Assembly: GCA_050951925.1 (NCBI GenBank)
Contig: JBMNJZ010000001.1
Span: forward strand, 915,015 to 979,014
Origin: Saccharofermentanales bacterium
GTDB lineage: Bacteria; Bacillota; Clostridia; Saccharofermentanales; DTU023
DNA length: 64,000 nt
Direction of reading: 5' to 3'
Part shown: piece after piece, positions 1-25,552 of the stretch
Position numbering within the stretch: the first letter of the stretch is position 1
Layout of the letters: the number at the start of each line of letters is the position of its first letter
Notes under the pieces: model-generated
Seen by the model: the letters and a program-made list of their open reading frames with translations, nothing else
Databases searched by the model: none
Told to the model about the DNA's origin: nothing
Translations under genes and position numbers: made by a program

Positions 1-2
1 AA

Positions 3-827
3 AGAGAGGGCAGGTTCAGAGGCAAGAACTGCGCCTTGATTTTACCTGAGTTCAGTACATATTTCAGGTCGCTTGAGATGCCTCCGATCAGTGAAAAGCA
101 GCTGCGACTCAATCTCCCGTACGAATTCAGAGATTTCGTTGGCAATGAGAGCATAAACTATAATTATGATTACGCAGTTGAAGGCTATGTCACGGACGAG
201 GACGGCAAGGTAACGGCTGTCAGTTTGCTCGCGGCAGCCGCCTCGAAGATAACAATCAAGGAGTATGAGGACCTTCTTTACAGAGCAAGCTTCAGGCTCA
301 AGGTGGCACTGCCGAGAGAGATGGCTCTTCTCAATCTCGTCAGAAAGGCTATCGAAAGGGAAGCTTACGGCGACAGAGTCTCCGTAATAATCGATTTAGG
401 CTTCGCAAACACGAGGGTCTACATACTGCAAGGGGGGGATCTGAGGGCTGCCAAGACGATCGAGATGGGCTGCAGGGACGTGGACAGCGTAATCGCGGAT
501 CATTATAATATCGATGTTTATCTTGCTGCTTCGTACAGGGAGACCGACCATGAAGGGATACTTGAAAGCGATGTCTGCCGGGCGGTATACAACAGAATAT
601 CGCTGGAAGTGATGAAGGCTATAAACTTCTATAAATACGAAAATCAGCAGAGCGAATTCGAGGACTGCTTCATCTGCGGTGACTGCTCGGATACCGAAGC
701 TTTTGTAGACAATATGCTTGCATATGTGCGGCTGGACAAGGCGAATCTGGATGTGATTCTACCCAAAGAATGCAGGGGCCTGAGTGACGCTCCGCGCGCG
801 CTCATGTCCATAGGCGTTACTTTATAG
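3..827 (+). CDS. pilM: Type IV pilus assembly protein PilM-like (actin-like ATPase fold), 5' end outside the window
   Basis: The frame is open from base 3, with no stop upstream of the TTG at 36, so the gene is cut by the window edge. The layout is PilM-like (LPYEFRDFV segment, IIDLGFANTRVYI nucleotide-binding-type motif, C-terminal FICGDCS). It is directly followed by PilN/PilO-like genes. Confidence 0.7.
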   Translation, partial: REGRFRGKNCALILPEFSTYFRSLEMPPISEKQLRLNLPYEFRDFVGNESINYNYDYAVEGYVTDEDGKVTAVSLLAAAASKITIKEYEDLLYRASFRLKVALPREMALLNLVRKAIEREAYGDRVSVIIDLGFANTRVYILQGGDLRAAKTIEMGCRDVDSVIADHYNIDVYLAASYRETDHEGILESDVCRAVYNRISLEVMKAINFYKYENQQSEFEDCFICGDCSDTEAFVDNMLAYVRLDKANLDVILPKECRGLSDAPRALMSIGVTL

Positions 828-839
828 GAGAAGGACTTC

Positions 840-1487
840 ATGGGAAATAAGCCAAAAAAACATAAAGTCTCAAAACTTCCTTCAAAAAAGACCATGAACC
901 TCTATCAGATTGAGATTACCGATAATTCGTGGCAGAGGGTAATACCTTACGCGCTACTGATTATTGTTATTGTGGCTGCATTTGCTCAATTCGGTGTCTT
1001 TCAAAGAATATCGCAACTTAATAAGTTGAGCGAGCAGGTTTCTAAAGCTCAGATTCAGCTTGAGAAGCTCAATAAATCCATAGAGGACTATGATGACGTT
1101 AAGACCGAATATATCAGATATACCGACGATTACATGCTTGAGGAAGAAGGAAAGCTTGTTGACAGGATGAAAATCATCGGTCTGATAGGTGACAAGGTTT
1201 CCAACATAGGAGAAGTCAAGAGCTACGCAATAGCCGATAACACGGTTTCTCTCGAAGTAGTTGTCGATACGCTCGATGATGTTCGCAGGATAAGGAAGCA
1301 GCTTGACGAAGTAGATTGGGTCGGGAACATAACCGTCAACACCGCTACGAAGAGTATTTCTGCCGCAGGTGGGGGCGAGGTAGTCGCTTCGATCGTGTTT
1401 GATGTTATTTACCAGGGCGAGTCTGAGGAGCCGGTTGACGCTTCCGGCACTGCGGAAGCAGCGGACGGAGAGGGGGTTGATGACTGA
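840..1487 (+). CDS. PilN-like pilus assembly protein (bitopic, coiled-coil)
   Basis: 215 aa. It has a basic N-terminus, one TM helix (VIPYALLIIVIVAAFAQFGVF) and a coiled-coil (LNKLSEQVSKAQIQLEKLNKSIEDY). There is a GGAG-type RBS upstream. It sits between the pilM-like and pilO-like genes. Confidence 0.6.
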   Translation: MGNKPKKHKVSKLPSKKTMNLYQIEITDNSWQRVIPYALLIIVIVAAFAQFGVFQRISQLNKLSEQVSKAQIQLEKLNKSIEDYDDVKTEYIRYTDDYMLEEEGKLVDRMKIIGLIGDKVSNIGEVKSYAIADNTVSLEVVVDTLDDVRRIRKQLDEVDWVGNITVNTATKSISAAGGGEVVASIVFDVIYQGESEEPVDASGTAEAADGEGVDD

Positions 1488-2119
1488 TGAATCTGAAGAG
1501 AGAAGTTATGTCGCTTAAAGAGTTGATACTTCTGGGCATATTGATCATCCTCGCAGCATATTATTTCGTAGTGCATGGCCCGATTGAAAAACAGACGGCA
1601 GAGTACGAGAGTAAGCTTGCCGAGATTGATTTAGAACTGCAGATTGCGCAGCAAAAGGCTGTAGAGAAAATTAAGATGCAGGAGTCAATCGACGCCATAT
1701 TTGCCCGATATGACGGTAATCCGCCAATGATACCTGCATACAACAATATTAATTTTATTATGGGAGAGTTAAACGGTATTTTAGGCAATACTTATGATTA
1801 CAATTTATCATTTGGCGCGGAGACGGCGGATGAGAATAATATTAAGATTATTAGAAGACCGATAGCTATTTCTTTCTCGACTCAAAAATATAGTGACGCT
1901 GTAGCGAAAATTAAGACGATTAATGAGTCGGAAAATAAATATTTGATTCAAAATGTTTCTGTTTTTGATTCTGGTGCTAATAGCTCCGTCTTAACCAATC
2001 CGTTTGGCGATCCTGTTAATAGCACTAAAAACAGTGGCAGGTACAATATTGTAATGACCATGACAAGTTTCGAGTACAAGGCGGATGCGCAGGCACCGCA
2101 GGAGGACATATCACAATAA
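1487..2119 (+). CDS. PilO-like pilus assembly protein (bitopic, coiled-coil)
   Basis: 210 aa. Its start overlaps the upstream stop (ATGA). It has an N-terminal TM helix (LILLGILIILAAYYFVV) followed by a coiled-coil. The call rests on architecture and position only. Confidence 0.5.
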   Translation: MNLKREVMSLKELILLGILIILAAYYFVVHGPIEKQTAEYESKLAEIDLELQIAQQKAVEKIKMQESIDAIFARYDGNPPMIPAYNNINFIMGELNGILGNTYDYNLSFGAETADENNIKIIRRPIAISFSTQKYSDAVAKIKTINESENKYLIQNVSVFDSGANSSVLTNPFGDPVNSTKNSGRYNIVMTMTSFEYKADAQAPQEDISQ

Positions 2120-2187
2120 AGTACGAAATACTCTTGAATGCATAAAGATATAGAGGATTTTTGGTCGGGGAACAGTAAAAAATATCC

Positions 2188-2222
2188 AAAGCTTACCGCG
2201 GTTGGCAGCGGTAAGCTTTTTT
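2188..2222. terminator. Bidirectional Rho-independent terminator between the convergent pilO-like and pseudopilin genes
   Basis: A perfect 12-bp stem, aaagcttaccgc (2188-2199) / gcggtaagcttt (2208-2219), with an 8-nt loop, followed by a T-run. Confidence 0.75.
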
Positions 2223-2258
2223 AATGAGCTTTTTTAACAGCCTGAAATACGCATATTG

Positions 2259-2807
2259 CTATCCGTTGAGAATCTCAACCGCGAAATTCTCTTCGGAAAT
2301 AATAATTTGTTCATCTTGCGTCATAACCTGAATGCCGATCTTGAATACCATGAAATTTTGATTCGGTGGAGTTAAATCCCTTTCGGACGCAGTAGTAAAC
2401 TTGGCTTTTAAATCGTAAACATAGGTTTTTTTCGGAACCAAGTCATATTTCCCCTCCGGTGTACTCAGCGTTATGAATCCACTTTCAGCGGGATCACCGT
2501 TTTCATCCGTTATTGAGAAGCTGCAATTTTTAAGAGAATGATTCGTACTAAAAAACTTTAGATCACTCAGGTTTGTTCCTTCAATATTTTTGGCGTAGCG
2601 AAGCTCATTTTTGACCGCAGTAACGAGCGTAGCGCACAAAATCTGCCCTTCCGCCTCCCGGTTAGATTTGTTAAATGAGCGCACTCCGAGATCTATCGCT
2701 AAAGATATGATTCCGGTTACTAATATCAGGAGAACTACCGTAACCAGGAGCTCGATAAGGGTTACACCTTTATTATTTGATTTCTTAACGACATTACTTA
2801 TAGTCAT
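2259..2807 (-). CDS. Type IV pilin/pseudopilin with prepilin leader (Glu+5 present)
   Basis: From Met32 of the track ORF the protein reads MTISNVVKKSNNKG|VTLIELLVTVVLLILVTGIISLAI. That is a short basic leader, Gly-1, Glu at +5 and a hydrophobic helix, the class III signal. The ATG at 2807 overlaps the upstream gene's end by 14 nt. Confidence 0.8.
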   Translation of the reverse strand: MTISNVVKKSNNKGVTLIELLVTVVLLILVTGIISLAIDLGVRSFNKSNREAEGQILCATLVTAVKNELRYAKNIEGTNLSDLKFFSTNHSLKNCSFSITDENGDPAESGFITLSTPEGKYDLVPKKTYVYDLKAKFTTASERDLTPPNQNFMVFKIGIQVMTQDEQIIISEENFAVEILNG

Positions 2808-3117
2808 AAAAATAGTACCCCTCGGATTCATATACATTAAAATCGTACCCCGCGAATTCATCTGCCTCTGTAGAAATATCGAGACTTTCGATAACGGCAC
2901 CAGAGTATTCGACTGTAACTGTAACCTCTTCGGCTATGGGAGCTGTCCTGTCCATCATCGTAGAAATATCTTTTTCCTCAGCCTGTTTGTTGAGTTTAGC
3001 TGCGAGTGTAATAGCAGTAGGAAGCATAATCATTACAAGAACTATGATGAGCAGACTGACCAAAACTTCTATCAGGGTTTCTCCGCGTTTGTTTTTTAGT
3101 TTACTTTTTGTTTTCAT
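2794..3117 (-). CDS. Small type IV pilin/pseudopilin with prepilin leader (Glu+5 present)
   Basis: From Met13 of the track ORF the protein reads MKTKSKLKNKRG|ETLIEVLVSLLIIVLVMIML. A GGAGG RBS lies inside the end of the upstream gene, and the ATG at 3117 is 1 nt after the upstream TGA. 107 aa. Confidence 0.8.
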   Translation of the reverse strand: MKTKSKLKNKRGETLIEVLVSLLIIVLVMIMLPTAITLAAKLNKQAEEKDISTMMDRTAPIAEEVTVTVEYSGAVIESLDISTEADEFAGYDFNVYESEGYYFYDYK

Positions 3118-3118
3118 C

Positions 3119-3850
3119 TCAGCCTCCGCTCGTCTTATTCTTGGTGATAACAAAGTTGTCCCAGCTGATTGTATGAACCACCTTTTGGGTAACGGTTATG
3201 GTCTTAACATTTTTGTTTTCTGTCCGTTCTTTCATTTCGCTTGAAGATGTGACCGGATATGAGGTGGCTTTTAATAAATCCATAGTCATAACCGCTGATG
3301 GCGAAGCATCTTCAATGCCGAAAGTGGTGGTTATTCTCATTTTTTGAGGATTGAACACCATCTTAGCTTCTACGGTTGCTATCTCCGATAAAATGTCGTT
3401 GCAGGTTATAGTGATAGTTAGTTCTGTTTGCGAAGCAGGCGGGTCAATGATTGCTTTTGCCCAGGCATTAAGGACCGCTTGCGGTACTATATTTTTTGCT
3501 GCGATATCATTGTAAACAGCTGGGTCTAATGAAGCTTCGGTCGATGGTGGGCTCTCTGACACCAGCTCATCCCAGTTATCATCATATACTTTCTCAGTGG
3601 TAGTAATGAATGTTTGCTCAAAGGAGATACTATCACCCTCAAGCGCATTTTTGAACATCATAACCGCGGAGCTTACCGCGAGGTAATTTTGTTCCTCGTT
3701 CTGCGTGTTTTTTACACGACCTATGTTGGAAAACGCAGTATAAATCAGAACCGCCGAAATCATGAGGCAAAGAATCAGGGCGACCAAAGCGAACACAATG
3801 GTCGCGCCCTGCTTGGACTGTATTTTATTCTTTAGATTACTTGAATTCAT
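3119..3850 (-). CDS. Minor pseudopilin-like protein lacking Glu+5
   Basis: The N-terminus is MNSSNLKNKIQSKQG|ATIVFALVALILCLMISAVLIYTAF, a basic leader, Gly, then a hydrophobic helix with Phe at +5 instead of Glu. The ATG at 3850 lies inside the last codons of the giant upstream gene. Confidence 0.65.
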   Translation of the reverse strand: MNSSNLKNKIQSKQGATIVFALVALILCLMISAVLIYTAFSNIGRVKNTQNEEQNYLAVSSAVMMFKNALEGDSISFEQTFITTTEKVYDDNWDELVSESPPSTEASLDPAVYNDIAAKNIVPQAVLNAWAKAIIDPPASQTELTITITCNDILSEIATVEAKMVFNPQKMRITTTFGIEDASPSAVMTMDLLKATSYPVTSSSEMKERTENKNVKTITVTQKVVHTISWDNFVITKNKTSGG

Positions 3851-6800
3851 GTAATCTCTCCTGAAGGGAAGTATGGTACTTAAATAGCCATATTCCGCCG
3901 TCTTGGTTTTTTATAATATTCTTGTTAGAGTTATTAAGAATGAATTTATTATTGCTATTGTCAAACAAAATCCTCCAAAAACTTTGGAAAAACAGATTGT
4001 GCATATCGCTGTAGTATTTAGCCCCATAAAGCCCGGGCCCGGATGTTGCACCACAGAAAACAGCATTGGTATTAGAGCCACCTGTAGGTTTTTTTATGTA
4101 TGTCTCGTTATGAGTATTAGAAAGCTTAAGGTATTCCGTGCCTACGCCGTCTGGTACGTCGTTCGTAACATCCCATAGCATCGTATTTTCGCTCACAGGC
4201 GAGGCGAGGTGATAATCATCTCCACCTATGTGCTGAAGATATACTTGTGTCGTAGTAACCGGATTGTCAGACCCGGGCCCGAGTCCGGGCGGCGACTCTC
4301 CGGTCATGCAATAGTATTCCGTGTCGCTTTCTCCTACCACCCTTGCGACAACAAGGTATTTTTCTTCCGTATTGGTAGTCGTGGGAAGCGGATCATCGTA
4401 AGAGGCTCCGCTGACAAATTTCAGATTATATGGTATCTTCCACCTCGCATATAGTTCTATATCCTGTTCCGGATTGATATTAAATTTACCATCCTCTGTA
4501 ATTCCTGCTATATCGCCGTCATCTGTGTAAATCGTTCCGTTAGTATTCAATAGTTTTTTGAGATCTTCACCATCGTAAACATACCAGCCTGCAAAGCTTG
4601 AGCTTGAGTCTAAAAGTGAACCCTTATCACTCATCTCAATATTCAAAGCAGAGAATGATTTATCCGTATTGGTGGATATGAGAGCCGGATCTACACCTTG
4701 ATCGCCGTTATTGTAGAGATAATGGTTATTTATATATTCTTCATTTTCCGTTGCCGTTCCGTCTAAGTTATAATGCTTCAAAATAAGCTTTCCGGTGCAC
4801 CAAAGCGCACGTAAATTGAGTACATTGCTGTCAAAAGTCCTTATATTGCCTTCGCTGTCAATATTAGTCTTATCACGCGCTTCTATTTTCAGTGCCTGAA
4901 CTTTAAAATCAGCATTTCCCGCATTTTGCGCTGTAGCTTCCAGATAGAACGGCGAAGGATCTAATGTGGCCATGGCTCTATAAATGTCTGAACTAAAGCC
5001 AACGGCATTCTCCTCCGGATTGAATTCGAATGTGAATGTCCAATTTCCACTCACCGTCATTTCGTTAGTATTAATCAAGTTATTCCATTGATCCCTCAAT
5101 ATGAGGTTCCAATTTACTGTATCTCCACGTTCCAGCCTCTGCCGTTCTCCCGGGTGCCAAACCTCAGGATTAATCGGCTCTGCCGACAAATTAACTATAG
5201 CGGTGACATCAACTTTTAATGTTGCCATATAATATTTGCCGCTATCTGAATATCTAAAGAGGATTATCGTAGGTGTTTCTGTCTTATCGATACCCGTTAC
5301 GGTAAGTTTGGAAATAATACCCTCGGTTTCGCTTGCGGATATTTCAACCTTGTCGTTGATACTTACGGACGGGTTATCGGCGAAATTAACCCATTCACCA
5401 TTGTCTTTTCTGATTTCAAAATTTAACACTAAAATATCTGTGTAACCGTCGCCGTCAAAAAATTGCACTTCCGTTTCATCGACATAATCGTCAATATCTT
5501 CGCCTGTAACCGCATCTGTATGATAAGAAATTAAATCCAACCCCATTTCGGACTCAGTCAATTCCAAGCGCCTGTTCTTAGGCCATTCGCCGTAGTGGAC
5601 ATATTTTTTGCCGCCCGGATATTCTTGCGTAATTACTGTGGCAAACGGATAGTCCTCACCTTCGAGCGAAGCTTCACCGCAGGGGAAGCTGTAGTTAGCA
5701 GTGACTTTGTGATAAGAATTCTGTGGGGAACCGCTATTCAAGTCATCGCAGAATTGCTGCAGTGACATATCGTCGTATGATTTCGAATTAATGCCGTTAT
5801 CTACCCAACCGGATTCAGCCGATGCTATTATCAGCTGGCCGGTTAGATAATTGTTAGCATAATAATAGCAGTTATTTAACTCGCCGCCTAACTGTTTTGG
5901 CAGTAAATTGTTCTCGTTATAGCATGCGTCACCGCCTATTACGGCAACCTTTACATTGCCTTCAGGCAGGGGTAAATCCATATAAGAATAGCAATTATAA
6001 TATTTCGGGCTTATAAATGCACTCGCCTCCTCAGCATGCATATTTACGGCACTGCATGTAAAGGCTGATGAGGCGATGCCGCTGATATAAATATTCAGTT
6101 GATCGGACTCGGGATAGATAAGAGAATGATTAACAATAACTCTGCCGCCGGAATAACAATTATTTATCTTGGTTTGATTTGTACCCGCGATACCTCCTAC
6201 AGTTATGTTATCTTTATAGCCTGAACCAACACTTGTGCCCCTGTTCCTATCTGTATTGATTCCAATTGTAGTTACGGCAGAGCATCTGTTTATATTTGTT
6301 CTGAGAACGCCTGCCAAGCCACCTATGGTTGCTTCGCCGCAAGAAACCGGCTGATTGCTTTCATCACTAATTTCATAGCCGGCAACCGCACAGTTTTCGA
6401 TCTTGCCATTGTAGTTATCATAGTCATCATCATATTCGTTTGCCATCCCCACTAAGGTGCCGATGGCATAATAGCCCGCAGGGCTTTCTGCAGGACGCTT
6501 AATTACCGCAGGAGTGTTATTTGAGTCCCTGATGAGTACGACATTTTTTATCGTAGAGCTTACAGTTAATCCGAAAACTCCTACCGAATAACAACTTGAT
6601 GTAATAGAAAGGTTCTTGATTTTATAACTTTGACCGTCAAAAGTCCCGCCAAACCAGGCAAAAAACGGTAAGCGGTAGCTCTTTCCCGATGTTTCTCCAA
6701 GGGCAGCGATCGGGGAATAGCTTGTTCTTCTGATGCACTCTATATCATAATCCTGAATGAAGTTCTGTCTTGCCCTTGATTGCCCGAAATCATTCCAGAC

Positions 6801-9800
6801 TTCCGGTTCCGCTTCCGCGTTATAAGTCCAACCTGAAGCATCACTATATTCTATCTGGCTTCCTTTCTTTGTCGCGTGCAAATAAGGGAAATAATTGTAA
6901 TTTGTTCTGCTAATCCGCTGATCACAATTCCTATTAACGCTGTTCCAGTTGATAAACTGCAGTTGGTCGAGTGACCTGATTCTGTATTTATTATTCCCCG
7001 TTCCCGGCTCGTATTGAGGAGCGGGTTGAGTACCGGCGTTATTCCATGTGTTCCAACCTGTGAGCTTTATTGATTTGGCGAAGAAAGGACAGAAAGTATA
7101 GTTTAGCGGATCGTCCTCCCCGGCTGTTAAAGTCACGGTAGCATTCTGCACATTCCCCGTCATGAACATATAGTTATCTTTATACAGGCGGCCATTAGCA
7201 TCAACGCCATTAGTTTTATATGAGGTAGCAAGATTAGTTTCATCACAAGTGGTATAGCAATAGAACTTATAGCCTGGATAGTTTTCATTAAAATATGAGT
7301 CGGCGGAAGCGTTTGTGGTTACAGGGTTGGTTGCAGATACATTCACATTCAGCCATGATACATCTAAGGCGTATGTTTCTGTGCCGCCGCCTTTTTTGGC
7401 AACATAATACCCATAGCCGTATTCTTTGACGATTCCTCCGGTGTTATGCGCCGTGCTTGTGGTGTTATGGTAAACCGCCTCGTATTCTCCGCCTTCGCCA
7501 TTTTTTCTGCCAACCATATAGATCTTATATCCCTGACCCTGAGCAGAGCCTCCAGTAACTTTTTCCCAGTAGAACAGACCGGCCTTACCGTATTCAGGTT
7601 CCTCTTCCGATATCGGCGGCAACCAATCGCCATAATGAGGGAGACCTTCTATTGATACATACGGGTATATGACAAGAAGCTCAAGGTTTTCTTTTTGATT
7701 GTTTTGATTATATGGATAGGTGTCAAACTCGTTTTCGTCGTCCGAAAAAGGACTTCCCAATAAAGTGGCAGCAGCTGCATTAGATGTGAATTCATATTTT
7801 TGAGAATCTTCTAGCTTATTATCTTCGGATCCGAAATAGTAGACATTCTGTACCGTTGTTGCGTCCGGCGCTGTACTGTATATGTGAGTCGCCTGTGACT
7901 CGGAACAGTTAAAGAGCGAATATGAATTGGTTATACTTGAAATGTTGTTGGGAACAAAGCCCGCTGCCGAATCAATTATGCCTTCGGCTAAACCGGTTTT
8001 CATTATTCCGAAACCTGCGGAGTATGAGCCTGAAATAGAGGATCCGGCAGTAAGTGCACCTGCCAGTCCGCCTATCTTGGAAGTCGATGCGCCTCCGATA
8101 AGGTATGAGTCAGCATACGAATTCTGTATTATAGCACTGCCGTTTGTTTTGCTGCCTATCAGACCGCCAATCGAGCCCGTTCCTTCGATGATCGTTGCGG
8201 CAAAGCTGTTTTGAATGGTTAACGTGGAGTCTGTCGAACTGCTGCCTACGAACCCGCCGACATTGGCAGTGCCTTTCAATAAGATATTGTCCGCATAGGT
8301 GCTTTCGGATGCAAAGTATTCTTTCTCAATATAAAGTCGGCAGTCTTTTATTGTAAGGTCTGAGGTGGTTCTTCCCGCCAGGCCGCCTACGTCCGTGCCG
8401 CCTTCTATCTTTTCGTTAACCAATGTAACGCCGGAAATATTAGTTCCTGCAAAACTCCCAAACAACCCCGCCGGTTCGGAGCTGTTGCCGATATGCATAT
8501 TAATAATTTTGAACGAGTCGGCAGCAGGCGGGGCAATATAGCCCGAATATGTCATTAAAGACGAGTTGTTGATCGGCGTGAATGTTTTATCTCCGTAAAT
8601 TGACTTCCAGAGGAACGGCTTTTCGAGAGACCAATTATCATCAGAAACATCGTTAAAGTCTATATCCGAAATCTGTTTTGCGGAGGTAATGGCATTCGCC
8701 GGCAAGCGTGAAGTTGATATGTTAAGATTCTGCAGATGTCTGCCATACGCTATATTGGCTTCTGTCGGGTTCTCCGGATTTAATGACGCGAATAAACTGT
8801 TTGTAGTTCTTTCTATCGGGCCTACGTCCGGAACACTGTTGTCGCTGCTTGAGACAGTAAATGATAGTTCTAAGTCTTCGCCCGGAATGAGAGCGCCTGT
8901 CCTTGGCTCTGCATAATCCGGTTCCCATGTTATAGCGCCGAAAGTGTCTTTGAAGTATTGACTTTGATTGGTTTCGGGGTCGACGTCAAGCTTATCAAGT
9001 ATAACGGACGCAGAAAATACTTTAGTTACTGGATCCGGGGTGACGGTCTGCAGGAGAGTGACTGTATTACCGCTTGTTTTTCCCTTAACTGCAAGCTTAA
9101 ATTCCAGATCACTTATATCAGAATCAGAAGGAAGAATCGCAGTCATATTCGCTTGCAAAATATCGGCATTGATGACATTCAGCGAGGCGTTGATCATATT
9201 GCCGCTTACATCCGCGGGCATATTCGCTTTGCCGCCGTAGTAGCCTATTTTATTATTCCCTTTCAGGCTATGCCTGGGATCCTTGAATCTTATCGAAGAA
9301 TCCCCGTTTAGCGTTTCATCGTTATCAATGTAATAATTGCCGGAAGATCTTTTTTCCGAGTAAAATGCCGAATAGACATATCCGGTAACAGGGTCAAATT
9401 CAATGACCCAATTATCATCACGTACATCCCCATCAATGCTTCCTGGAGGAAAAATAAAATCGACCAGGTCACTTGGAGTTGAATTACCAGGATTGTCTTT
9501 GTCGTGATAAAAATATTTTAAGTTACCAGGATTTACCGCAGCAGTGTCTTCTCCCCAATCGGCCGGTTTGACGTCGACTTCTCCAAGTTCTGTGGCCGTT
9601 AATAAGCTGTCTATTCCTCCCGATGCTTTTAACTCCTTAATTCTGTTCTGCGCGCTGACATACATGCTCTGGGCTATGTTGTCCAGCTTTGTTTGATTGA
9701 TACGGTCAACCAAGCCTTGAATGCCAATAAATGCGACACCGAGAAGAATCACTACGATCGCAACAACGATGAGTGTTTGAATCAGCGTTAAACCTTTTTT

Positions 9801-9833
9801 ATTTTTTAACTGGCTGTCAATTCTTGTTTTCAC
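3837..9833 (-). CDS. Giant (1998 aa) modular protein with a type IV prepilin N-terminus, two GLUG-like repeat blocks and a Listeria-Bacteroides-type repeat
   Basis: GTG start at 9833 with GGAGG 7 nt upstream. The N-terminus is MKTRIDSQLKNKKG|LTLIQTLIVVAIVVILLGVAFIGI (Gln at +5). The ORF is uninterrupted for 5994 nt. There are GG-hydrophobic-x-G repeats at aa ~440-650 and ~1060-1330, and FAGWYVYDGE...DIELYARW at aa 1747-1798. Confidence 0.85.
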   Translation of the reverse strand: MKTRIDSQLKNKKGLTLIQTLIVVAIVVILLGVAFIGIQGLVDRINQTKLDNIAQSMYVSAQNRIKELKASGGIDSLLTATELGEVDVKPADWGEDTAAVNPGNLKYFYHDKDNPGNSTPSDLVDFIFPPGSIDGDVRDDNWVIEFDPVTGYVYSAFYSEKRSSGNYYIDNDETLNGDSSIRFKDPRHSLKGNNKIGYYGGKANMPADVSGNMINASLNVINADILQANMTAILPSDSDISDLEFKLAVKGKTSGNTVTLLQTVTPDPVTKVFSASVILDKLDVDPETNQSQYFKDTFGAITWEPDYAEPRTGALIPGEDLELSFTVSSSDNSVPDVGPIERTTNSLFASLNPENPTEANIAYGRHLQNLNISTSRLPANAITSAKQISDIDFNDVSDDNWSLEKPFLWKSIYGDKTFTPINNSSLMTYSGYIAPPAADSFKIINMHIGNSSEPAGLFGSFAGTNISGVTLVNEKIEGGTDVGGLAGRTTSDLTIKDCRLYIEKEYFASESTYADNILLKGTANVGGFVGSSSTDSTLTIQNSFAATIIEGTGSIGGLIGSKTNGSAIIQNSYADSYLIGGASTSKIGGLAGALTAGSSISGSYSAGFGIMKTGLAEGIIDSAAGFVPNNISSITNSYSLFNCSESQATHIYSTAPDATTVQNVYYFGSEDNKLEDSQKYEFTSNAAAATLLGSPFSDDENEFDTYPYNQNNQKENLELLVIYPYVSIEGLPHYGDWLPPISEEEPEYGKAGLFYWEKVTGGSAQGQGYKIYMVGRKNGEGGEYEAVYHNTTSTAHNTGGIVKEYGYGYYVAKKGGGTETYALDVSWLNVNVSATNPVTTNASADSYFNENYPGYKFYCYTTCDETNLATSYKTNGVDANGRLYKDNYMFMTGNVQNATVTLTAGEDDPLNYTFCPFFAKSIKLTGWNTWNNAGTQPAPQYEPGTGNNKYRIRSLDQLQFINWNSVNRNCDQRISRTNYNYFPYLHATKKGSQIEYSDASGWTYNAEAEPEVWNDFGQSRARQNFIQDYDIECIRRTSYSPIAALGETSGKSYRLPFFAWFGGTFDGQSYKIKNLSITSSCYSVGVFGLTVSSTIKNVVLIRDSNNTPAVIKRPAESPAGYYAIGTLVGMANEYDDDYDNYNGKIENCAVAGYEISDESNQPVSCGEATIGGLAGVLRTNINRCSAVTTIGINTDRNRGTSVGSGYKDNITVGGIAGTNQTKINNCYSGGRVIVNHSLIYPESDQLNIYISGIASSAFTCSAVNMHAEEASAFISPKYYNCYSYMDLPLPEGNVKVAVIGGDACYNENNLLPKQLGGELNNCYYYANNYLTGQLIIASAESGWVDNGINSKSYDDMSLQQFCDDLNSGSPQNSYHKVTANYSFPCGEASLEGEDYPFATVITQEYPGGKKYVHYGEWPKNRRLELTESEMGLDLISYHTDAVTGEDIDDYVDETEVQFFDGDGYTDILVLNFEIRKDNGEWVNFADNPSVSINDKVEISASETEGIISKLTVTGIDKTETPTIILFRYSDSGKYYMATLKVDVTAIVNLSAEPINPEVWHPGERQRLERGDTVNWNLILRDQWNNLINTNEMTVSGNWTFTFEFNPEENAVGFSSDIYRAMATLDPSPFYLEATAQNAGNADFKVQALKIEARDKTNIDSEGNIRTFDSNVLNLRALWCTGKLILKHYNLDGTATENEEYINNHYLYNNGDQGVDPALISTNTDKSFSALNIEMSDKGSLLDSSSSFAGWYVYDGEDLKKLLNTNGTIYTDDGDIAGITEDGKFNINPEQDIELYARWKIPYNLKFVSGASYDDPLPTTTNTEEKYLVVARVVGESDTEYYCMTGESPPGLGPGSDNPVTTTQVYLQHIGGDDYHLASPVSENTMLWDVTNDVPDGVGTEYLKLSNTHNETYIKKPTGGSNTNAVFCGATSGPGLYGAKYYSDMHNLFFQSFWRILFDNSNNKFILNNSNKNIIKNQDGGIWLFKYHTSLQERLHEFK

Positions 9834-9976
9834 GGTGTACCTCCGCTATTCAAACGGCATTGACGGTTTAGTTCACTTGGCCTAGTTATAAAACTATTAT
9901 AATTATAATTGTTTGCATTATAAAATATTGCAACCGGTCTGTCATGTACGAATCCCTATTGCTCAATGTTTGGGCA

Positions 9977-10109
9977 CTTGAGTTTTGCGCCGTTGCGCTT
10001 CTCTAGGTCTGCCAGCAGTATTTAAGTGCGAGCCTCTAAAATAGATACACTCATCAATGCTGGATCTTATGTCCATGCTAGCATAGAAACGGCGCAAATT
10101 AAACTCAAG
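9977..10109. repeat. 18-bp inverted-repeat pair flanking a 93-bp segment, upstream of the pilin operon
   Basis: The left arm cttgagttttgcgccgtt (9977-9994) is the exact reverse complement of aacggcgcaa (10088-10097) plus aactcaag (10102-10109). The right arm carries a 4-nt insertion (atta). Confidence 0.85.
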
Positions 10110-10277
10110 GGTTCCCTCTCAAAGCAGGAACGACATATTTGGTATAAAAATGGTACAAAACAGCCGAAAGCGGGTAAGAAATCTAAAAGCAAAACCCGCT
10201 GAAATATCTATGTTCCAACGGGCTCGGACTTGGCATCGTACAATAAAATGAATACAATCCACTTGAAAGTATGTCGT

Positions 10278-10354
10278 GGGTGCATTTGGGTGTATTTCTG
10301 AAAACCGGGTGCACCGCTCAGTTTAGGGTGCATTCATTGTTGCAACAAGGTGCA
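10278..10354 (+). repeat. Array of five direct GGTGCA-type repeats plus a 12-bp palindrome
   Basis: GGGTGCA occurs at 10278, 10307 and 10326, GGGTGTA at 10288 and AGGTGCA at 10348. The spacings are 10, 19, 19 and 22 bp. The third copy is part of the palindrome GGTGCACC (10308-10315). ttgttgcaacaa (10337-10348) is a perfect palindrome. Confidence 0.8.
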
Positions 10355-10381
10355 TGGGCAGTATATGCCGATTCTGCTTCT

Positions 10382-11704
10382 TTATAGCAGATTGTCAATC
10401 TCCTCAAGCAGGAACGGGATGATTCCCACATAACTGATGCCATTTTCATCTGTGTGCATTTTTGCATTACCGCCTGTTACTACAAGTTTTCTAAATGAAT
10501 CCCCGCTTTTTAGGAGAGGAAGAATTTCTTGCTGATGTTTTTCCGCATCATGGATGCTGAAAGCGGACTGTATGTAGACCTTTTGGTTTCCCCTATTTAC
10601 TACAAAATCAATCTCGTGCCATCGTTCGGGGAGCAGCCTGCCAGCCACGGTTTTTGTAAAACGTACGGAACCCACATCTACCGCAAATCCACGAAGCACC
10701 AATTCATTATGCAAAATATTTTCCATCAAGTGAGTCTCTTCAATCTGTCGAAAATTCAGCCTGGCGTTTCGTAAGCCAACATCTTCCGCATAGTATTTTA
10801 CAGGAGAATTAAAATATGTCTTCCCTTTCACATCGTAGCGCCTGACTTTGGTAAAAAGAAACGCATCCTCTATCGCATCCAGGTATTTCTTTACGGTTTT
10901 ATCTGTTGTGCCCGCACGGCGAACTGAGTTTAAGGTGTTTGCCAGCTTTGATGGGTTAGTCAGGCTGCCAACATTGGAAGCCAGCACATCCACCAGGTCA
11001 TTCACATATGAGTCCGCCACCCGGTATCTTTCCGCAATATCAGCCACATATACTCGCTCAAACAAACTGGACAAGTACGCCTCTCTCTCCCTTGGGTTCT
11101 TTTCCAGCACGGCAAGCGGCATGCCGCCATACACCAGGTATTCTTCCCAGGCGTCCGCCTTTTCCATATCAGAAACGGAATAAAATTCTGCAAAGCTGAA
11201 AGGGTGCAGGCGTATTTCAATGCCTCTGTCACGGAAGTTGGTGGCAACGTCCTTGGACAGCATCTTGGAGTTGCTTCCGGTCACATAAATGTCCAAATTG
11301 CGTCGGGTCATCAAATCGCTGAGGATGTCGTAGAAGGTGGTGTATAGCAGTTCCCGATCTTCTTCAGGCACCTGACTTTCATCCACATCTAAGCGCTTGA
11401 CCTTGTAAGAGAGCTGAATTTCATCAATGAACAAATAAAACTGTTTGTTTCTACTTTCAATTTTTTCAACAACATACTGATGCAGGGTATTAGGGTTGCG
11501 CATGGCTTCATACTGTTTCTGGTCCAGCGCAATCTCAATGATCTGGCTGTCATCTATGCCTTGCTGATGAAGGTATTCTTTGAAAAGTCGAAACAGCAAA
11601 AATGACTTTCCGCAACGGCGTATCCCAGTAATGATTTTAATTCGACTATTGTGCATCATACTAATGAGACGCTTCAAAGGTCGCTCTCGATCAATGACTT
11701 TCAT
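10382..11704 (-). CDS. AAA+ ATPase of the AAA_14/DUF4143 type (function unknown)
   Basis: 440 aa. It has a Walker A GIRRCGKS near the N-terminus and a Walker B-like LFIDEIQ. The C-terminal half is typical of the widespread 'ATP-binding protein' family with a DUF4143 domain. There is an AAGGAG RBS upstream of the ATG. Confidence 0.75.
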   Translation of the reverse strand: MKVIDRERPLKRLISMMHNSRIKIITGIRRCGKSFLLFRLFKEYLHQQGIDDSQIIEIALDQKQYEAMRNPNTLHQYVVEKIESRNKQFYLFIDEIQLSYKVKRLDVDESQVPEEDRELLYTTFYDILSDLMTRRNLDIYVTGSNSKMLSKDVATNFRDRGIEIRLHPFSFAEFYSVSDMEKADAWEEYLVYGGMPLAVLEKNPREREAYLSSLFERVYVADIAERYRVADSYVNDLVDVLASNVGSLTNPSKLANTLNSVRRAGTTDKTVKKYLDAIEDAFLFTKVRRYDVKGKTYFNSPVKYYAEDVGLRNARLNFRQIEETHLMENILHNELVLRGFAVDVGSVRFTKTVAGRLLPERWHEIDFVVNRGNQKVYIQSAFSIHDAEKHQQEILPLLKSGDSFRKLVVTGGNAKMHTDENGISYVGIIPFLLEEIDNLL

Positions 11705-11718
11705 AAGGACTCCTTATG

Positions 11719-11821
11719 ACGGATTTCATCGATAGTCGATAAAATCCGTACTTAAGGTATAATTTTACACCATTGTTATTTTCTGCGCAAACCGGATTTC
11801 ATCGAGACTCGACGAAATCCG
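11719..11821 (-). repeat. Two related ~30-nt perfect or near-perfect hairpins/palindromes in the ATPase leader
   Basis: Copy 1 is at 11719-11749 (acggatttcatcga tag tcgataaaatccgt). Copy 2 is at 11793-11821 (cggatttcatcgag a ctcgacgaaatccg). The single mismatch in each becomes a G-U wobble only when read on the minus strand. Confidence 0.7.
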
Positions 11822-12099
11822 TCTTGATGACATAATAAAACCTGAAATGAAGATATCGGAGTAAGCATTTCCGACAACCACACTTTCTACTGAAAAAACC
11901 TGCTTAAAACGAGAAAAAATCAACCAGAAACAGAACCGACCCTGTGTTAGCTTGCTCACATTCAGATTATCGAACAATTCGTAATCGAAAAGTGCAAAAT
12001 TATAAAGCTGCAAGATGTTGAGACTACCGGTTTTCATGGTTTCAACATGAATGAGGGTGCCCAATTCACTTAATAAAGTGTTTTGAGACACCCCCGACT

Positions 12100-12176
12100 T
12101 GGTGGGTGGTAGTGGAGTCGAACCACCGACCCCCTGCATGTCACGCAGGTACTCTAACCAGCTGAGCTAACCACCC
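12100..12176 (-). tRNA. tRNA-Val (anticodon GAC), CCA encoded
   Basis: The reverse complement folds by hand as a cloverleaf: acceptor GGGTGGT/ACCACCC, D-arm GCTC..GAGT, anticodon stem CCTGC/GCAGG with loop GTGACAT, T-arm GGTGG TTCGACT CCACT, and 3' ACCA. Confidence 0.9.
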
Positions 12177-12372
12177 GCAAGCTAGGTTAGGATACATTAA
12201 TCAGGAGGTTTCTGTCAAGTGCGCTTTCCCGGTTGTGCTTTCCCCCTTTACCGGTTTCTCTGTTCTGTTCCGGCGCAGATCCGGCGCAGATCCGGCGCTG
12301 GTTTCTTAATTCTTCAGCAAGTTCATATGGGATACGAAGTGGTTAGAAATTGAGTCTTTGGAATAGTTCGGC

Positions 12373-12963
12373 TCATTGTATTTTGTCGCGGAGGACATGG
12401 CCGAAGATGCCGTTTTTGAACAGATCATAAAAGAAGTTAGAAATTCGTTCAGCATCCACCAGCCCCTCGGTTTTTCGCGTCAGATAGCTCAGGGTGTGCA
12501 AAAATCCGCCGACGAAAAGTTCGAGGGTATAGTCCAATTCCAGCTCACTCAGACCTAAGCGCGGCTCTATGAGTTCACTTACAGCTTGCTTGATGGCGGT
12601 GACGAGGCGATGCATAAAATGCCGATTGCCATTTGGCCCTAATAAGATATCAAATTTGCTTTGATTTTGATTATGAAAATACAGGATCTGTTGCAATAAT
12701 TGTTTGGAAGAGCTGTCTTGCCGGGCGCCGATGATGAGGATTTCTTTGAGGACTTCTTTGGATGGTATCAATTCATCTTCGATCGCTTCGAGTACGGCGG
12801 GAGCATCCTGGAAATAATAATAGAAGGTGGACCGGTTTATATCGAGGTCTTTAGCGATTTCGGTGACGGAAACCATCTGCCCCGGATTTCCTTTGTATTT
12901 CTGCCAGAAGGTGTCGATAATTTGACTGCGGGTATGAGCCGTTTTCTCTGCTTGTTTTCCCAT
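12373..12963 (-). CDS. TetR/AcrR-family transcriptional regulator
   Basis: The N-terminal HTH region is TRSQIIDTFWQKYKGNPGQMVSVTEIAKDLDINRSTFYYYF. I chose the start at the ATG with a GGAG 6 nt upstream (MGKQAEK...). The longer track ORF start has no RBS. Confidence 0.75.
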   Translation of the reverse strand: MGKQAEKTAHTRSQIIDTFWQKYKGNPGQMVSVTEIAKDLDINRSTFYYYFQDAPAVLEAIEDELIPSKEVLKEILIIGARQDSSSKQLLQQILYFHNQNQSKFDILLGPNGNRHFMHRLVTAIKQAVSELIEPRLGLSELELDYTLELFVGGFLHTLSYLTRKTEGLVDAERISNFFYDLFKNGIFGHVLRDKIQ

Positions 12964-13243
12964 TTCGTTCTCCATCCCTGCCCGGCAGTTGCGGCCGGCG
13001 TGATCAGCAAAGGTATGTGCCAAGAGTGTACGCTGTTTCCGATAAAGATGCAAAAGTAAAAATCAGGAAAGAATTTTTTGCCAAACACGCCAAAACCCGA
13101 CAGATAGCCGATTTTGTTGGTGTGATTTGCCTGTGTAATCTTTTATTATTTAATCAGGAAGATAATAGGGGGTAATGGGCTCTTTTATGTGGAAGTGTTT
13201 TCAGGAACCGCCTATATTTCCAAATAATTTTTAGAGGTAATAA

Positions 13244-15073
13244 ATGAAAGCTCAAGATCCTAAACACAATAGTCCCAGAAAGAAACTGGCGACATATTAT
13301 GGCATAGCCATACTTATCATAATTTTCTTAAATTACGTTGTTTTCCCGCTGTTGTTTTATCCCAGGCCGAGACAGGTGGCTTACAGCCAATTTATGCGGG
13401 ATGTAGATCGCGGTATTGTCACGCAAGTTGAAGTTTCCGATACGGAGATTCAATATGCTACGCGAGAGGGCGAACAGGTCAGTTATTTTAAAACGGGCAT
13501 TATGAATGATCCTGATCTGATCGCTAATTTAGAAGCAAAAAGTGTTGAGTTCGGTGCCGTTATTCCGGAGCGCCCCAATACCTTTTTATCGTTGCTGCTT
13601 ACTTGGGGCTTGCCCATTTTATTCTTTGTGATGATGGGCCGTTTCGTGTCGCGTTCGCTGCGGGGGAGAATGACCGCCAGCGGTATGAGTTTCAGCGGTC
13701 ATAATGCGGCGCGCATTTATGTTCCGGACGAAGATAAAAAAGATTTTTCGGATGTTGCCGGTCAGGACGAGGCCAAAGAATCCTTAAAAGAGATTATTGA
13801 TTTCCTGGAGGACCCGGAAAAGTATAAAAATATTGGCGCCAGATGTCCGAAAGGCGTTTTGCTTGTAGGACCGCCGGGTACGGGAAAGACCTTGATTGCC
13901 AAAGCTGTTGCCGGCGAGGCGGATGTCCCGTTCTTTTCGATTTCCGGTTCGGAATTTGTCGAGATGTTCGTTGGACGGGGCGCGGCGAAAGTGCGTGAGC
14001 TGTTCGAACAAGCTTCAAAAAAAGCGCCCTGTATTGTCTTTATCGACGAGATCGATACCATCGGCAAAAAACGCGATAGCCAGCTGGCGACCAATGATGA
14101 GCGCGAACAAACATTGAATCAGCTTTTAACGGAGATGGATGGCTTTGACAGCAATAAGGGCGTGATCATTCTGGCGGCGACTAACCGTCCGGAGATACTC
14201 GACCCCGCTTTACTGCGCCCCGGTCGCTTTGACCGCCTGGTGCGCGTTGAATTGCCTGATCTGCAAGATCGCGTTGCGCTTATGAAAGTGCATCTGCGCA
14301 AGGTAAAACATGCGGAAGATCTGGACTATTCTCTGATAGCCCGCATGACAGCCGGTGCTTCCGGCGCCGATATGGCGAATATTGCAAATGAGGCGGCATT
14401 GCGTGCCGTGCGCATGGGTCGTGAGCTTGTGACAACGGCTGATCTTGAGGAGTCAATCGAAACAGTCATCGCCGGGCAACAAAAGAAAAATGCCATCTTA
14501 TCGGATCAGGAAAAAGAGATTGTTGCCTATCATGAGATCGGTCATGCGTTAGTGGCGGCAAATCAGACAGGCGCCGCCCCTGTCCAGAAAATTACCATCA
14601 TTCCCAGGACATCGGGAGCCTTGGGCTATACCATGCAGGTTGAGGAAGAAGAAAAGTCGTTGCTGAGTAAGCGTGACGCGCTGAATCGGCTCGAGGTTCT
14701 CTGTGGCGGCAGAGCGGCGGAAGAGATTGTCTTTAACGAAATTACAACGGGCGCCGCCAATGATATTGAAAAAGTGACTCAGTTGGCTCGTCAAATGGTT
14801 ACGCAATACGGTATGTCTGAGCGCTTTGGCATGATGGCGCTTGAGGCGTCAGGATCCCAGTATTTAGGCGGGGAGAGCAGACTATCCTGCTCTTCGGAAA
14901 CAGCTAAAGAGATTGATAAGGAAGTTTTGGCCTTGATTCAGAAGAGCCATGATAATGCGCGGGATATTCTGACGGCCAATCGGGACAAGCTTGATCAATT
15001 AGCCGCGCATCTGATCGAAAAGGAAACGATCACCGGCGCGGAATTCATGGAGATTTTAACGGGGGAAGAATAG
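13244..15073 (+). CDS. ftsH: ATP-dependent zinc metalloprotease FtsH
   Basis: It has an N-terminal TM pair, the AAA Walker A GPPGTGKT, Walker B IVFIDEID, an SRH region and the zinc motif HEIGHA. Confidence 0.95.
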
Positions 15074-15305
15074 TACCCGGCGCCGAATGCGACTGTTTTG
15101 CTTCCGCCCGCCATATGGTATCAGATAGCAGTAAAAGCTTAAGTGGCGGTGCCTGCCGAGAACCGGCGGCGCCGTCGCTTAAATCTTTGTCTCCCTTGTC
15201 GTTGGTAAAAGATCACTGTCTGCCGTACTTTGACAGTTATGATAACCCTCTTCTATAATCATTTAATGTGGAGACGTAGTGTGAGGCTTAATGTGATGGT
15301 GAGAC

Positions 15306-18300
15306 ATGGCTGAAGCTTTGCATTTTAATCGCGCACTGGGGATAGACATCGGTTCTACGACTGTTAAAGTATCCCTCACTTGTGGCGGGCAGATTGTATT
15401 TGAGCGCTACGAGCGCCATCTTTCCCATATCCAAGATAAAACAATTGAGCTATTGGAGCAGGCGTCTGATCTGCTGGCGGCGGCTCCTTTTACGGTGGCT
15501 TTGTCCGGGTCGGCTGGATTGGGGCTGTCCGAAATATCCGGCCTGCCCTTTGTGCAAGAGGTTTATGCGACGGGAGAAATCGTAAAGCAACTGGAGCCGG
15601 ACACCGGCGCGGTGATTGAGCTCGGCGGCGAAGATGCCAAGGTGATCTTTTTTGCCGGCGGCACCGATGCCCGAATGAACGGGAGCTGTGCCGGCGGCAC
15701 GGGAGCTTTCATCGACCAGATGGCCGCTTTGCTTGACATGACAATTCCTGAGCTGGATGAGGCATCTTTTCGAGCGGAGAGAATCTATCCGATCGCTTCC
15801 AGATGCGGTGTATTCGCCAAGACGGATGTGCAAGCGCTGTTCAATCAGGGCGCCGGCAAAGAGGATGTGGCGGCTTCGATCTATCAGGCTGTGGTGAATC
15901 AGACTATCGTCGGTCTGGCTCAGGGCAGGCAGCTGCAGGGCAAATTGCTTTTTCTGGGCGGCCCGCTGTACTACTGTGCCGGTCTGCGCCGGCGTTTTCG
16001 TGAGACGCTGCAACGGGATGAAACGGACTGCATCTGCCCGGACTATGCCTTATTCGCGGTAGCGCGGGGAGCCGCATATCTGAGCCGGAATCTAGAGCCA
16101 TATACTTATGACAGATTGATTGAGAGCATCAGGCGCACGGATGAGAAATCTCATTATGAGCGCGGTTTTGTGGAGCCTCTGTTTACAGATGCGGAAGAAT
16201 ACCGGAACTTCAGGGAGCGGCATGAGCAAGATAATGTCGTTGAGCGCAGCATCGAAGATTATACCGGCCGGGCTTGGCTGGGAATTGACAGCGGCAGCAC
16301 GACGACAAAGCTGGTTCTGATCTCGGAGGATCAGGAGCTTCTATACAGTTATTATTGTGTCAATCGCGGTTCGCCGGTCGAGATTGTACTGGAGCAGCTG
16401 CGGGAGATCCGCCGTCTCTGCGGCGACCGGATTGAAATCTGCGGGGCCGCCAGTACGGGTTATGGCGAAGCTCTGATGCAGCATGCTTTTCATACGGATG
16501 CCGGAGTGGTGGAGACTATGGCCCATTATACGGCGGCGCGGTTTTTCCAGCCCGAGGTCGATTTTATCCTGGATATCGGCGGCCAGGACATCAAATGCTT
16601 CTATATTAAGAACGGCGCAATTGATTCGATCATGCTCAATGAGGCTTGTTCATCGGGCTGCGGTTCTTTCCTGGAGACTTTCGCCCATGCGATGGGATAT
16701 GAGGCGGATGAGTTTGCTAGGCTGGGCATCAAGGCGAAGGCTCCGGTAGATCTGGGTTCGCGCTGTACTGTGTTTATGAATTCCTCAATCAAACAGGCGC
16801 AAAGAGAAGGGGCCTCCCTGGCGGATATTGCGGCCGGACTTTCAATCAGCGTGGTCAAGAATGCTCTGTACAAGGTGATCCGCGCCGGCTCGCCGGACGA
16901 ACTGGGCGAGCATATTGTGGTCCAGGGCGGCACTTTGCTGAATGACGCGGTTCTGCGGGCACTGGAACTTGAATTGGGCCGCGATGTGATCCGGCCTGAG
17001 ATTGCCGGGCTGATGGGCGCTTTCGGCGCTGCTCTTGTCGCTAGGCAGTTCGGGTCGAGCAATTTGCTGTCAGAGGCGGAGCTGGCTGAGTTCAGACATG
17101 AATCCTCGGTGCGTATTTGCCGCGGCTGCACCAATCACTGCACATTGACAGTCAATCGCTTCGCCGACGGCGGTAGATATATCTCGGGCAATCAGTGTCA
17201 GAAGCCGCTGGGACTCGATGCTTGTGAGGAGCTGCCCAATCTGTACCACTGGAAGCGGGAGAGGCTCCTGGCCCTGGCTGCCGGCTCGGGTGCCGGGACG
17301 GGTGCCGGGATGGATGCCGGGGCGGATGCAAAGCGCCTTCGTCCCAAAAGAAGCGGGAAACAGGAGGGGGAGCTGGCTGTGACAACAGATCGGGCGCTGG
17401 GGCGGATGTCGGAGCAGATGCCGGAACAGAGGCCGGGGCGGATGGCGGAGCAGAGGCGGGAGAGTCCGCGCGGCCGGATCGGTCTGCCCACAACGCTGTC
17501 CACCTATGAGCTGGCGCCGCTCTGGCAGGCGTTGTTTACGGAGCTGGGCTACGAGGTAGTTTTCTCGCCGCTCTCGACCAGGCGTATTTATGAGCAAGGG
17601 CAGCTATCGATCCCGTCGGATACGATTTGTTATCCGGCGAAGGTTATGCATGGCCATATTGAGCTATTGCTGGAGCAGGGATTGGAGCTGCTGTTTTATC
17701 CCAGCCTGACCTATAATATTGACGAGGGCGGCAGCAGCAACCATTTTAACTGCCCGGTTGTGGCCTATTACGGCGAGGTTTTGCAGGGCAATCTGGATGC
17801 TCTGAAATCCGTGAAATTTCTTTACCCTTATCTGAATATCAACAGCGCCGGACAGCTGACCCGCACGCTGTACCAAGCGTTGCGCGAGGTCGATCCGACT
17901 ATAGCCAGGAGCGAAGTCAGACGGGCGGTCAGGGCCGGTTATGCCGCTCTGTCAGCCGAGCGCGCTGCGGTGCGCCGGGCAGGCGAGGAGGCCGTGAGAT
18001 ACGCGCGCCGGCATCATAAGCGGATCATGATTTTGGCCGGTCGGCCTTATCATGTCGATCCCGAGATCTGTCACGGCATTGACCGGTTGGCGTCAGCGCT
18101 GGGTTTTGTGATTGTGACCGAAGATTCCGTGGCGCACCTGGCTGAATTGCCGCAGTTGCAGATCCTCAACCAGTGGACTTATCATTCGCGTCTCTATCAG
18201 GCGGCGCAGTTTGCCTGTGATAACGCCGATGTCGAGCTGGTGCAGCTGGTATCCTTCGGCTGCGGCATTGATGCGATCACAAGTGATGAAGTGAAGCGGA

Positions 18301-18551: not shown

Positions 18552-18577
18552 CTGTCAGTTACAGGGGAAATAAGAAA

Positions 18578-20680: not shown

Positions 20681-21012
20681 TCTCTGACCTCTCAGGCTGC
20701 TTGCGGTGTTTTACGGATTTGCAGCGGCTTGGGGCGCGCATTATCCGAGCCCAGCAGGTTGTCAACAGTACTTTCAGCCGGATTTGCAGCGGCGGATTCT
20801 GCATCTCGCAGTAGAAAAATTCAGGTTATTCTTCTTGCTTAGGCAGATAAACTATTGTATCATGACAGCCGTAAGGCGACTAGATTTTCAGATTTAGATC
20901 CGTTCAAAACTGAAAGCTTGCTATTCAATGATTTTAGTTGGAGATTTTAGTGGGAAATGCTTTTCACATATCGATTGCATATGTGTTATTTTGCGGCAAT
21001 AGGAAATAACGA

Positions 21013-24118: not shown

Positions 24119-24119
24119 G

Positions 24120-25526: not shown

Positions 25527-25552
25527 GGATCAGGGGTGAGCGGCGACAAATT

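Follow-up and report, generated by a model that had tools for sequence, protein, structure and literature searches.

We analyzed a 64,000-nucleotide stretch of contig JBMNJZ010000001.1 from a Saccharofermentanales bacterium (positions 915,015 to 979,014; hereafter, the window), in which the minus-strand open reading frame (ORF) 3837..9833 encodes, according to the ORF list and its translation, a giant pilin-like protein of 1998 residues (1998 codons plus the stop). This protein is probably a giant modular minor type IV pilin carrying two beta-helix modules that are ancient paralogues, and, by analogy with characterized proteins, it would work as a pilus-borne adhesin. A first-pass annotation of the window had recognized two blocks of GLUG-like repeats in this ORF (here blocks A and B), each followed by an HYG[DE]W motif; it included neither the prepilin nature of the protein nor its type IV pilus cluster context. 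Gene calling on 7 metagenome contigs yielded a protein of identical sequence (P0001).

The N-terminus begins MKTRIDSQLKNKKG/LTLIQTLIVVAIVVILLG... (slash, end of the leader), in which a short basic leader ending in Gly is followed by approximately 20 hydrophobic residues. Together, the prepilin-type (class III) signal and the hydrophobic alpha1-N segment, MKTRIDSQLKNKKG/LTLIQTLIVVAIVVILLGVAFIGI, occupy aa 1-36 (9726..9833, minus strand). NCBIfam prepilin models match this N-terminus weakly, and the Pfam N_methyl model scores above its cut-off in homologues P0046 (22.1 bits) and P0101 (26.6 bits). The canonical G-x4-E is present in 105 of 120 homologues. By these sequence features, the N-terminus of the giant protein is a prepilin-type signal.

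The two GLUG-type modules

Module A (aa ~415-740; 7614..8591, minus strand) opens with an FTPI head, continues through approximately seven rungs of GLUG beta-helix, and finishes in a cap that ends YPYVSIEGLPHYGDW; HYGDW at aa 733-737 (7623..7637) closes the module. Module B (aa ~1036-1420; 5574..6728, minus strand) has an SPI...FGGTFDGQSYKIKNLSI head; its approximately six to seven rungs, which are longer and Cys containing, are followed by a helical cap and then by a beta-meander ending YVHYGEWP, with HYGEW at aa 1413-1417 (5583..5597) closing the module. Every one of the 20 motifs quoted in the first-pass annotation lies where it had been placed, in amino acid as well as nucleotide numbering (e.g., VGGLAGR at aa 482-488, IGGLAGV at aa 1170-1176, LPHYGDWLPP at aa 731-740 [nt 7614-7643], and YVHYGEWPKN at aa 1411-1420 [nt 5574-5603]). 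The GG-hydrophobic-x-G signature recurs at residues 483, 526, 556, and 588 of block A and at 1171 and 1213 of block B, where degenerate forms also occur at 1084 and 1124. H-Y-G-[DE]-W occurs twice (residues 733 and 1413) versus 0.0002 occurrences expected from composition.

The homology of the blocks was evident to different degrees depending on the method. In an ungapped self dot-plot, which the first-pass annotation had proposed as a check, the five top-scoring pairs of 30-residue windows were all inside or between blocks A and B. Only two pairs (1166/1208, score 51; 440/1069, score 47) beat all 20 shuffles; because the shuffle maxima reached 33-46, the signal from the single sequence is marginal. 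In BLASTP, blocks A and B aligned with 24% identity across 192 columns (E = 7e-4). With hhalign, the Prob was 95.7% (E = 1e-8) for 120-sequence orthologue alignments and 97.6% (E = 4.2e-12; 139 columns) for two curated diverse alignments; the aligned span began at the pre-helix F-[TS]-P-I head and took in the first four or five rungs. When compared on their own, the C-terminal halves showed weak similarity (P = 0.006) but were collinear, with an N-[VC]-Y-Y last rung, a helix bearing Y-x-x-[LM]-S, Y-[SP]-[YF]-P, and HYGxW in common register. The case for homologous caps depends on module 2 of relatives (see below), which bridges them. Thus, at the level of sequence profiles, where the comparison is decisive, blocks A and B are homologous modules that share an HYGxW ending, as had been proposed. 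As DNA, the blocks show no similarity, and within 3000-10500, Tandem Repeats Finder returned no result.

The assignment to the GLUG type was likewise upheld. Whole-protein scans gave sub-threshold matches alone (Pfam Glug, 11.8 bits and E = 0.36; NCBIfam likewise); thus, the blocks were scanned separately. Block A alone matches Pfam Glug (PF07581) at 25.0 bits (E = 2.2e-5), above the cut-off of 20.5, and 10 of 14 block A orthologues match this family (best E = 7e-11). Block B alone falls below the cut-off, yet 11 of 12 block B orthologues match Glug at E <= 0.1 (best E = 1e-5), and both modules are predicted by AlphaFold to form right-handed beta-helices. The predicted local distance difference test score (pLDDT) and predicted template-modeling score (pTM) were 79.6 and 0.86 for block A and 71.6 and 0.80 for block B.

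The best solved matches retrieved by Foldseek for both models were the beta-helices of IgA1 proteases (6xja, 6xjb, 7uvk, and 7jgj; probability, 0.99-1.00). For block B, the top five matches were all IgA1 proteases, and block A also matched Bacteroides ovatus 3n6z. The TM-scores against the IgA1 proteases were modest (0.28-0.43). By sequence, the block A family profile matched the IgA1-protease helix with an E value of 2.4e-7; single-sequence searches of blocks A and B against solved structures gave no relevant match. A search of a viral fold library returned GLUG-type proteins and no depolymerases.

Because the IgA1-protease beta-helix is noncatalytic and binds the Fab of IgA1 (PMC7695701) and because modular pilins, S. 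sanguinis PilB among them, display adhesive modules at the tips of pili (PMC8179133), we interpret the giant protein as a probable adhesin. An improbable alternative is a pilus-delivered or pilus-anchored enzyme, either an M26-like protease or a beta-helix polysaccharide lyase or hydrolase. A pilin-plus-GLUG architecture was catalogued in 2021 (IPR012902-IPR011493; 6 proteins) and read by Raynaud et al. as a predicted M26 peptidase (PMC8179133), and Peptidase_M26_N is weakly matched by 4 of the 14 block A orthologues. Pectate lyases and phage depolymerases also commonly have right-handed beta-helices and do appear as weak fold matches, and the last 169 residues of the protein weakly match Pect-lyase_RHGA_epim (E = 0.029). 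However, the giant protein contains no HExxH motif anywhere and no Pfam match to the M26 catalytic domain, and the corresponding GLUG beta-helix of the IgA1 protease has a gating rather than a catalytic role (PMC7695701). The lyase and depolymerase folds, moreover, matched either block with a Foldseek probability of <=0.35, and tailspikes likewise ranked far below the IgA1-protease helix. Because no catalytic domain is present, the database-driven reading of "pilin plus GLUG" as a peptidase is corrected here.

The remainder of the protein is less readily classified. The inter-module spacer (aa 741-1035; 6729..7613, minus strand), which places 295 residues between modules A and B, has no Pfam match and no match among solved structures. 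The C-terminal region (aa 1421-1998; 3840..5573, minus strand) has no solved relatives and, beyond chance-level matches, no Pfam family at E <= 1. It includes an F-x-GW...LYA-x-W motif (aa 1747-1798; 4440-4595, minus strand) that is conserved in 18 close homologues and that had been likened to a Listeria-Bacteroides repeat unit. We could not confirm this identification: Flg_new (PF09479) is not detected in the query at E <= 10, two of 10 orthologous segments score a sub-threshold 16-17 bits (cut-off, 27), and hhalign of the region against genuine Flg_new domains from distant relatives aligned 13 columns around F-x-GW (Prob, 45%). The distant relatives P0037, P0046, and P0101 do have true Flg_new domains close to their C-termini. 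As judged from these sequence comparisons, the likeness to the Listeria-Bacteroides repeat is at the motif level only. The Pect-lyase_RHGA_epim match mentioned above covers aa 1830-1998 (3840-4346, minus strand) and scores 14.6 bits against a cut-off of 27; the match may be due to chance, or it may mark a divergent third piece that resembles a beta-helix.

The HYGxW cap and the history of the modules

The H, Y, G, and W residues are invariant at both HYGxW sites in all 120 homologues. The fourth residue is an invariant Asp at the first site (120/120) and A, E, R, K, or S at the second. In the model of module B, HYGEW lies at a strand end (pLDDT, ~88). The distribution of this motif was examined against that of the helix itself. 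The block A profile, searched against 1.84 billion representatives, retrieved 33,534 proteins at E <= 1e-3; thus, the GLUG helix is very common. Co-occurrence of HYGxW with a pilin head was then counted in 145 new top database representatives: a pilin-type N-terminus and HYGxW occurred together in 73 and were both absent from 60. Truncated gene calls, fragments, and regular-expression false positives accounted for most of the 12 mismatches. HYGxW was found in none of 64 large GLUG-array proteins lacking a pilin head; therefore, it marks the pilin-headed family and not GLUG domains generally. Another cap motif, WDF..W..YP.L, occurs in 16 of these 64 GLUG giants and in 0 of 200 proteins of the pilin-headed family.

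Among the top representatives, the number of HYGxW motifs per protein was one (11 proteins), two (19), three (40), four (1), or six (2). The pilin-headed proteins P0128 (5534 aa), P0184 (4973 aa), and P0144 (2825 aa) have four to six HYGxW-capped modules and up to 29 GGxxG rungs. Our best guess at the role of HYGxW is that it locks the cap end of each helix to the next domain. More broadly, we raise, tentatively, the possibility that giant type IV pilins of Clostridia and their relatives have, in the HYGxW-capped GLUG module, a dedicated and as yet undescribed domain subfamily. Such a module could be a stackable block whose one to six copies determine how far a pilus-tip adhesin reaches or which ligands it accepts; HYGxW would then be a functional site (e.g., for locking domains together or contacting a ligand) rather than a passive structural turn.

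Most relatives carry three capped modules, while the clade of the query carries two. We traced the history of the modules by all-against-all hhalign of the blocks, the modules of relatives, and generic GLUG arrays. The orthologue of block A in relatives that share just 27-31% identity is module 1 (E = 2e-115), and that of block B is module 3 (E = 2e-154). Along its whole length, including the cap, module 2 of relatives aligns with A (E = 4e-20; 259 columns) as well as with B (E = 6e-28; 283 columns). Because of this orthology and the bridge provided by module 2, the modules are ancient paralogues of one capped ancestor and not the product of recent tandem copying; it is also through module 2 that the homology of A and B extends to their full length. 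When aligned with the three-module relative P0025, the spacer at aa 741-1035 falls on the one located after module 2. Thus, the query clade either lost module 2 or never gained it. Copy number has changed through gain and loss of whole modules, within a range of one to six and usually at three, and the query clade keeps the first and third types.

An alternative is that the two blocks are independently acquired GLUG domains that resemble each other through a common repeat grammar, with no internal duplication. The helix core of each block is closer to generic GLUG arrays, which align to this core alone (E = 3.5e-27 with A and 3.6e-23 with B), than to that of the other block (E = 4e-12). Rungs and turns also differ, being ~30 aa with N-S-[YF] in A and 36-55 aa with N-C-[YSA] in B, and the weak similarity of the C-terminal halves alone fits the same account. 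Independent origins nevertheless seem unlikely to us because both blocks end in the invariant HYGxW cap that the other GLUG giants lack, module 2 of relatives aligns to both along their entire length, module number varies from one to six inside the family, and the parts follow in the same order down to the final rung, helix, Y-[SP]-[YF]-P, and HYGxW. Homologous modules derived from one capped ancestor therefore remain our preferred account.

The first-pass annotation had further suggested tandem duplication of a module of ~350 aa. The homologous copies stood, whereas the tandem arrangement did not: a 295-residue unrelated spacer separates the copies, their helix cores are nearer to generic GLUG arrays than to each other, and no DNA repeat is present. 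A larger duplicated unit, composed of the helix plus the domain that follows it, was ruled out, as regions 200-400, 741-1035, 1421-1745, and 1800-1998 are mutually dissimilar by hhalign. In the relatives P0004, P0009, and P0010 (aa ~494-790), one block A rung (corresponding to query aa ~465-497) is expanded to three to six tandem copies; thus, the helix can grow per rung as well as per module.

The pilus locus and the proposed assembly

The giant gene has a GTG start codon with GGAGG 7 nt upstream and is preceded by a promoter-like site, ATGACA-17-TATAAT (9917..9945, minus strand), which was identified solely by its agreement with the consensus (11 of 12 positions). The giant gene is followed, on its own strand, by three small pilin-like genes. 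The first (3119..3850; 243 aa) overlaps the end of the giant gene and encodes ...KQG/ATIVFALV, in which Phe replaces Glu at +5. Its orthologues are found in the genome bins L003, L004, and L006, and those of L003 and L004 keep G-AT(I/M)(V/M)F, including this Phe. The second is a minor pilin gene (2794..3117; 107 aa; RG/ETLIEVLV) with a weak N_methyl match and orthologues in L003-L006. The third (2259..2807; 182 aa; KG/VTLIELLV), also a minor pilin gene, has orthologues in L003, L004, and L006 and scores 24.6 bits with N_methyl (on a longer ORF), above the 21.2 cut-off. A terminator-like hairpin with a 12-bp stem and then a T run (2188..2219, minus strand; consensus match only) lies 3' of the last pilin gene, so that the four-gene operon, made up of the giant gene and the three small ones, is framed by a ribosome-binding site and promoter- and terminator-like sites.

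The 3' end of a convergent pilus machinery operon (1..2119, plus strand) faces this operon. It comprises pilM, which is cut by the window start and ends at 827 (PilM_2 Pfam match), and genes resembling pilN (840-1487) and pilO (1487-2119). On L001, a longer metagenome contig with the identical giant gene, pilB, pilT, pilC, a gene for a 121-aa major pilin (pilA), pilD, pilM, pilN, and pilO are adjacent to it and make up a complete gene set for a pilus of the retractile type. The linkage between the giant gene and these pilus genes is kept, in varying order and orientation, in the four bins L003-L006, which are labelled Lachnospiraceae, Oscillospiraceae, Clostridiaceae, and Erysipelotrichaceae (the last at 28% identity). 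The minor-pilin and pilB...pilO operons are convergent here, collinear in L003 and L004, and in opposite order in L006; thus, the locus has been rearranged yet is still linked.

In the proposed mechanism, PilD would cleave the leader of the giant protein, and the N-terminal helix would then insert the protein into the pilus, probably in a tip or priming complex with the three co-encoded minor pilins. The remaining ~1950 residues would project outward, with the two beta-helices serving as rigid modules for ligand binding or spacing. In related systems, the outermost cap subunit typically lacks Glu5, and by analogy, the 243-aa protein may be the outermost, true cap subunit.

Several observations weigh against interpreting the giant protein as a pilus-borne adhesin. 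Its N_methyl score is 12.4-15.8 bits (E = 0.01 at 15.8), below the cut-off of 21.2, and the query and 9 close relatives have Gln and not Glu at +5. Block B alone reaches only 14.9 bits with Glug (E = 0.035; cut-off, 20.5), and its profile, searched against solved structures, retrieved nothing relevant and did not reach the IgA1 protease by sequence. In the model of module A, the HYGDW region (residues 336-361 of the modelled segment) has a pLDDT of <50. Approximately 1200 residues (aa 37-414, 741-1035, and 1421-1998) are without an assigned fold. A tip location for the giant protein is proposed by analogy, and the 243-aa protein may itself be outermost. Finally, cleavage, pilus incorporation, and ligand binding are predictions.

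Another explanation is a protein that does not assemble into a filament at all, i.e., a membrane-anchored surface protein with a pilin-like signal-anchor or a substrate or pseudopilus part of a secretion-type machine. Gln at +5 removes a charge thought to help subunit docking, the protein is very large, and the HYGxW-bearing relative P0205 has an ordinary signal-anchor in place of the pilin head. We nonetheless regard this explanation as very unlikely. Most family members keep Glu5, and the gene content of the locus, which includes pilT, pilD, pilMNO, and a major pilin gene, is what one typically sees for retractile type IVa pili. The operon, with its four pilins, parallels established priming complexes. 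Moreover, assembly of large modular pilins is known (PMC8179133). A minor pilin incorporated into the filament thus remains the preferred interpretation of the giant protein.

Directly upstream of the giant gene and on the same strand is a gene for an AAA_14/DUF4143 ATPase (10382-11704, minus strand), which is also found in L001 and L002. A tRNA gene (12103-12176, minus strand) overlaps the mechanically called ORF 11765-12139, which, because of this overlap, is probably not a gene; further tRNA genes lie at 31273-31345 and 39101-39172. The G+C content is 0.41-0.46 across the pilus region (1-14000) and 0.50-0.58 in the next 12 kb (14000-26000), which holds BcrAD_BadFG/DUF2229 activase genes and others.

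Relation to known systems

Type IV pili have received little study in the anaerobic Firmicutes of guts and digesters, and the ligands of these pili are mostly unknown; the family described here offers a concrete candidate adhesin. A pilin head combined with HYGxW is also a simple marker with which such proteins can be found and counted in metagenomes. In the literature outside subscription journals, we found no paper on giant pilin-headed proteins or on the HYGxW motif; GLUG appears there in passing mentions.

The closest relatives of the modules in fold are the M26 IgA1 metalloproteases (S. pneumoniae, 6xja and 6xjb; G. haemolysans, 7uvk; also B. ovatus, 3n6z), which display the same repeat grammar and the same right-handed beta-helix. 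The query differs in that it is without the metalloprotease domain, has two helices, each capped by HYGxW, and is fused to a pilin head. The giant GLUG-array surface proteins (3000-6900 aa, with 20-86 GGxxG rungs) have a helix core strongly similar to that of the query modules. In contrast to the query, they possess ordinary signal peptides and long uninterrupted arrays without HYGxW, and some have the WDF..W..YP.L cap.

With respect to the pilus, the nearest precedents are the modular type IV pilins, such as S. sanguinis PilB with its vWA module and PilC with its lectin module, where a pilin module at the N-terminus likewise carries additional domains (PMC8179133). The most extreme multi-domain pilin cited in that work has 860 residues, whereas the query has 1998 and its relatives have up to 5534 with six modules; at 2000-5500 residues, the proteins of the family far exceed the modular pilins previously discussed. 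That catalogue also does not describe a repeated capped module or an invariant motif of this kind. ComZ, CofB, GspK, and PilY1/PilC similarly place a large non-pilin mass at the pilus tip via a minor-pilin complex (PMC8179133). The operon described here likewise has four pilin-like genes; no relation in sequence or fold was sought or found, PilY1 itself is not a pilin, and the query is without a beta-propeller. Taken together, the family is a variation on the known pilin-GLUG design and not a new class of system.

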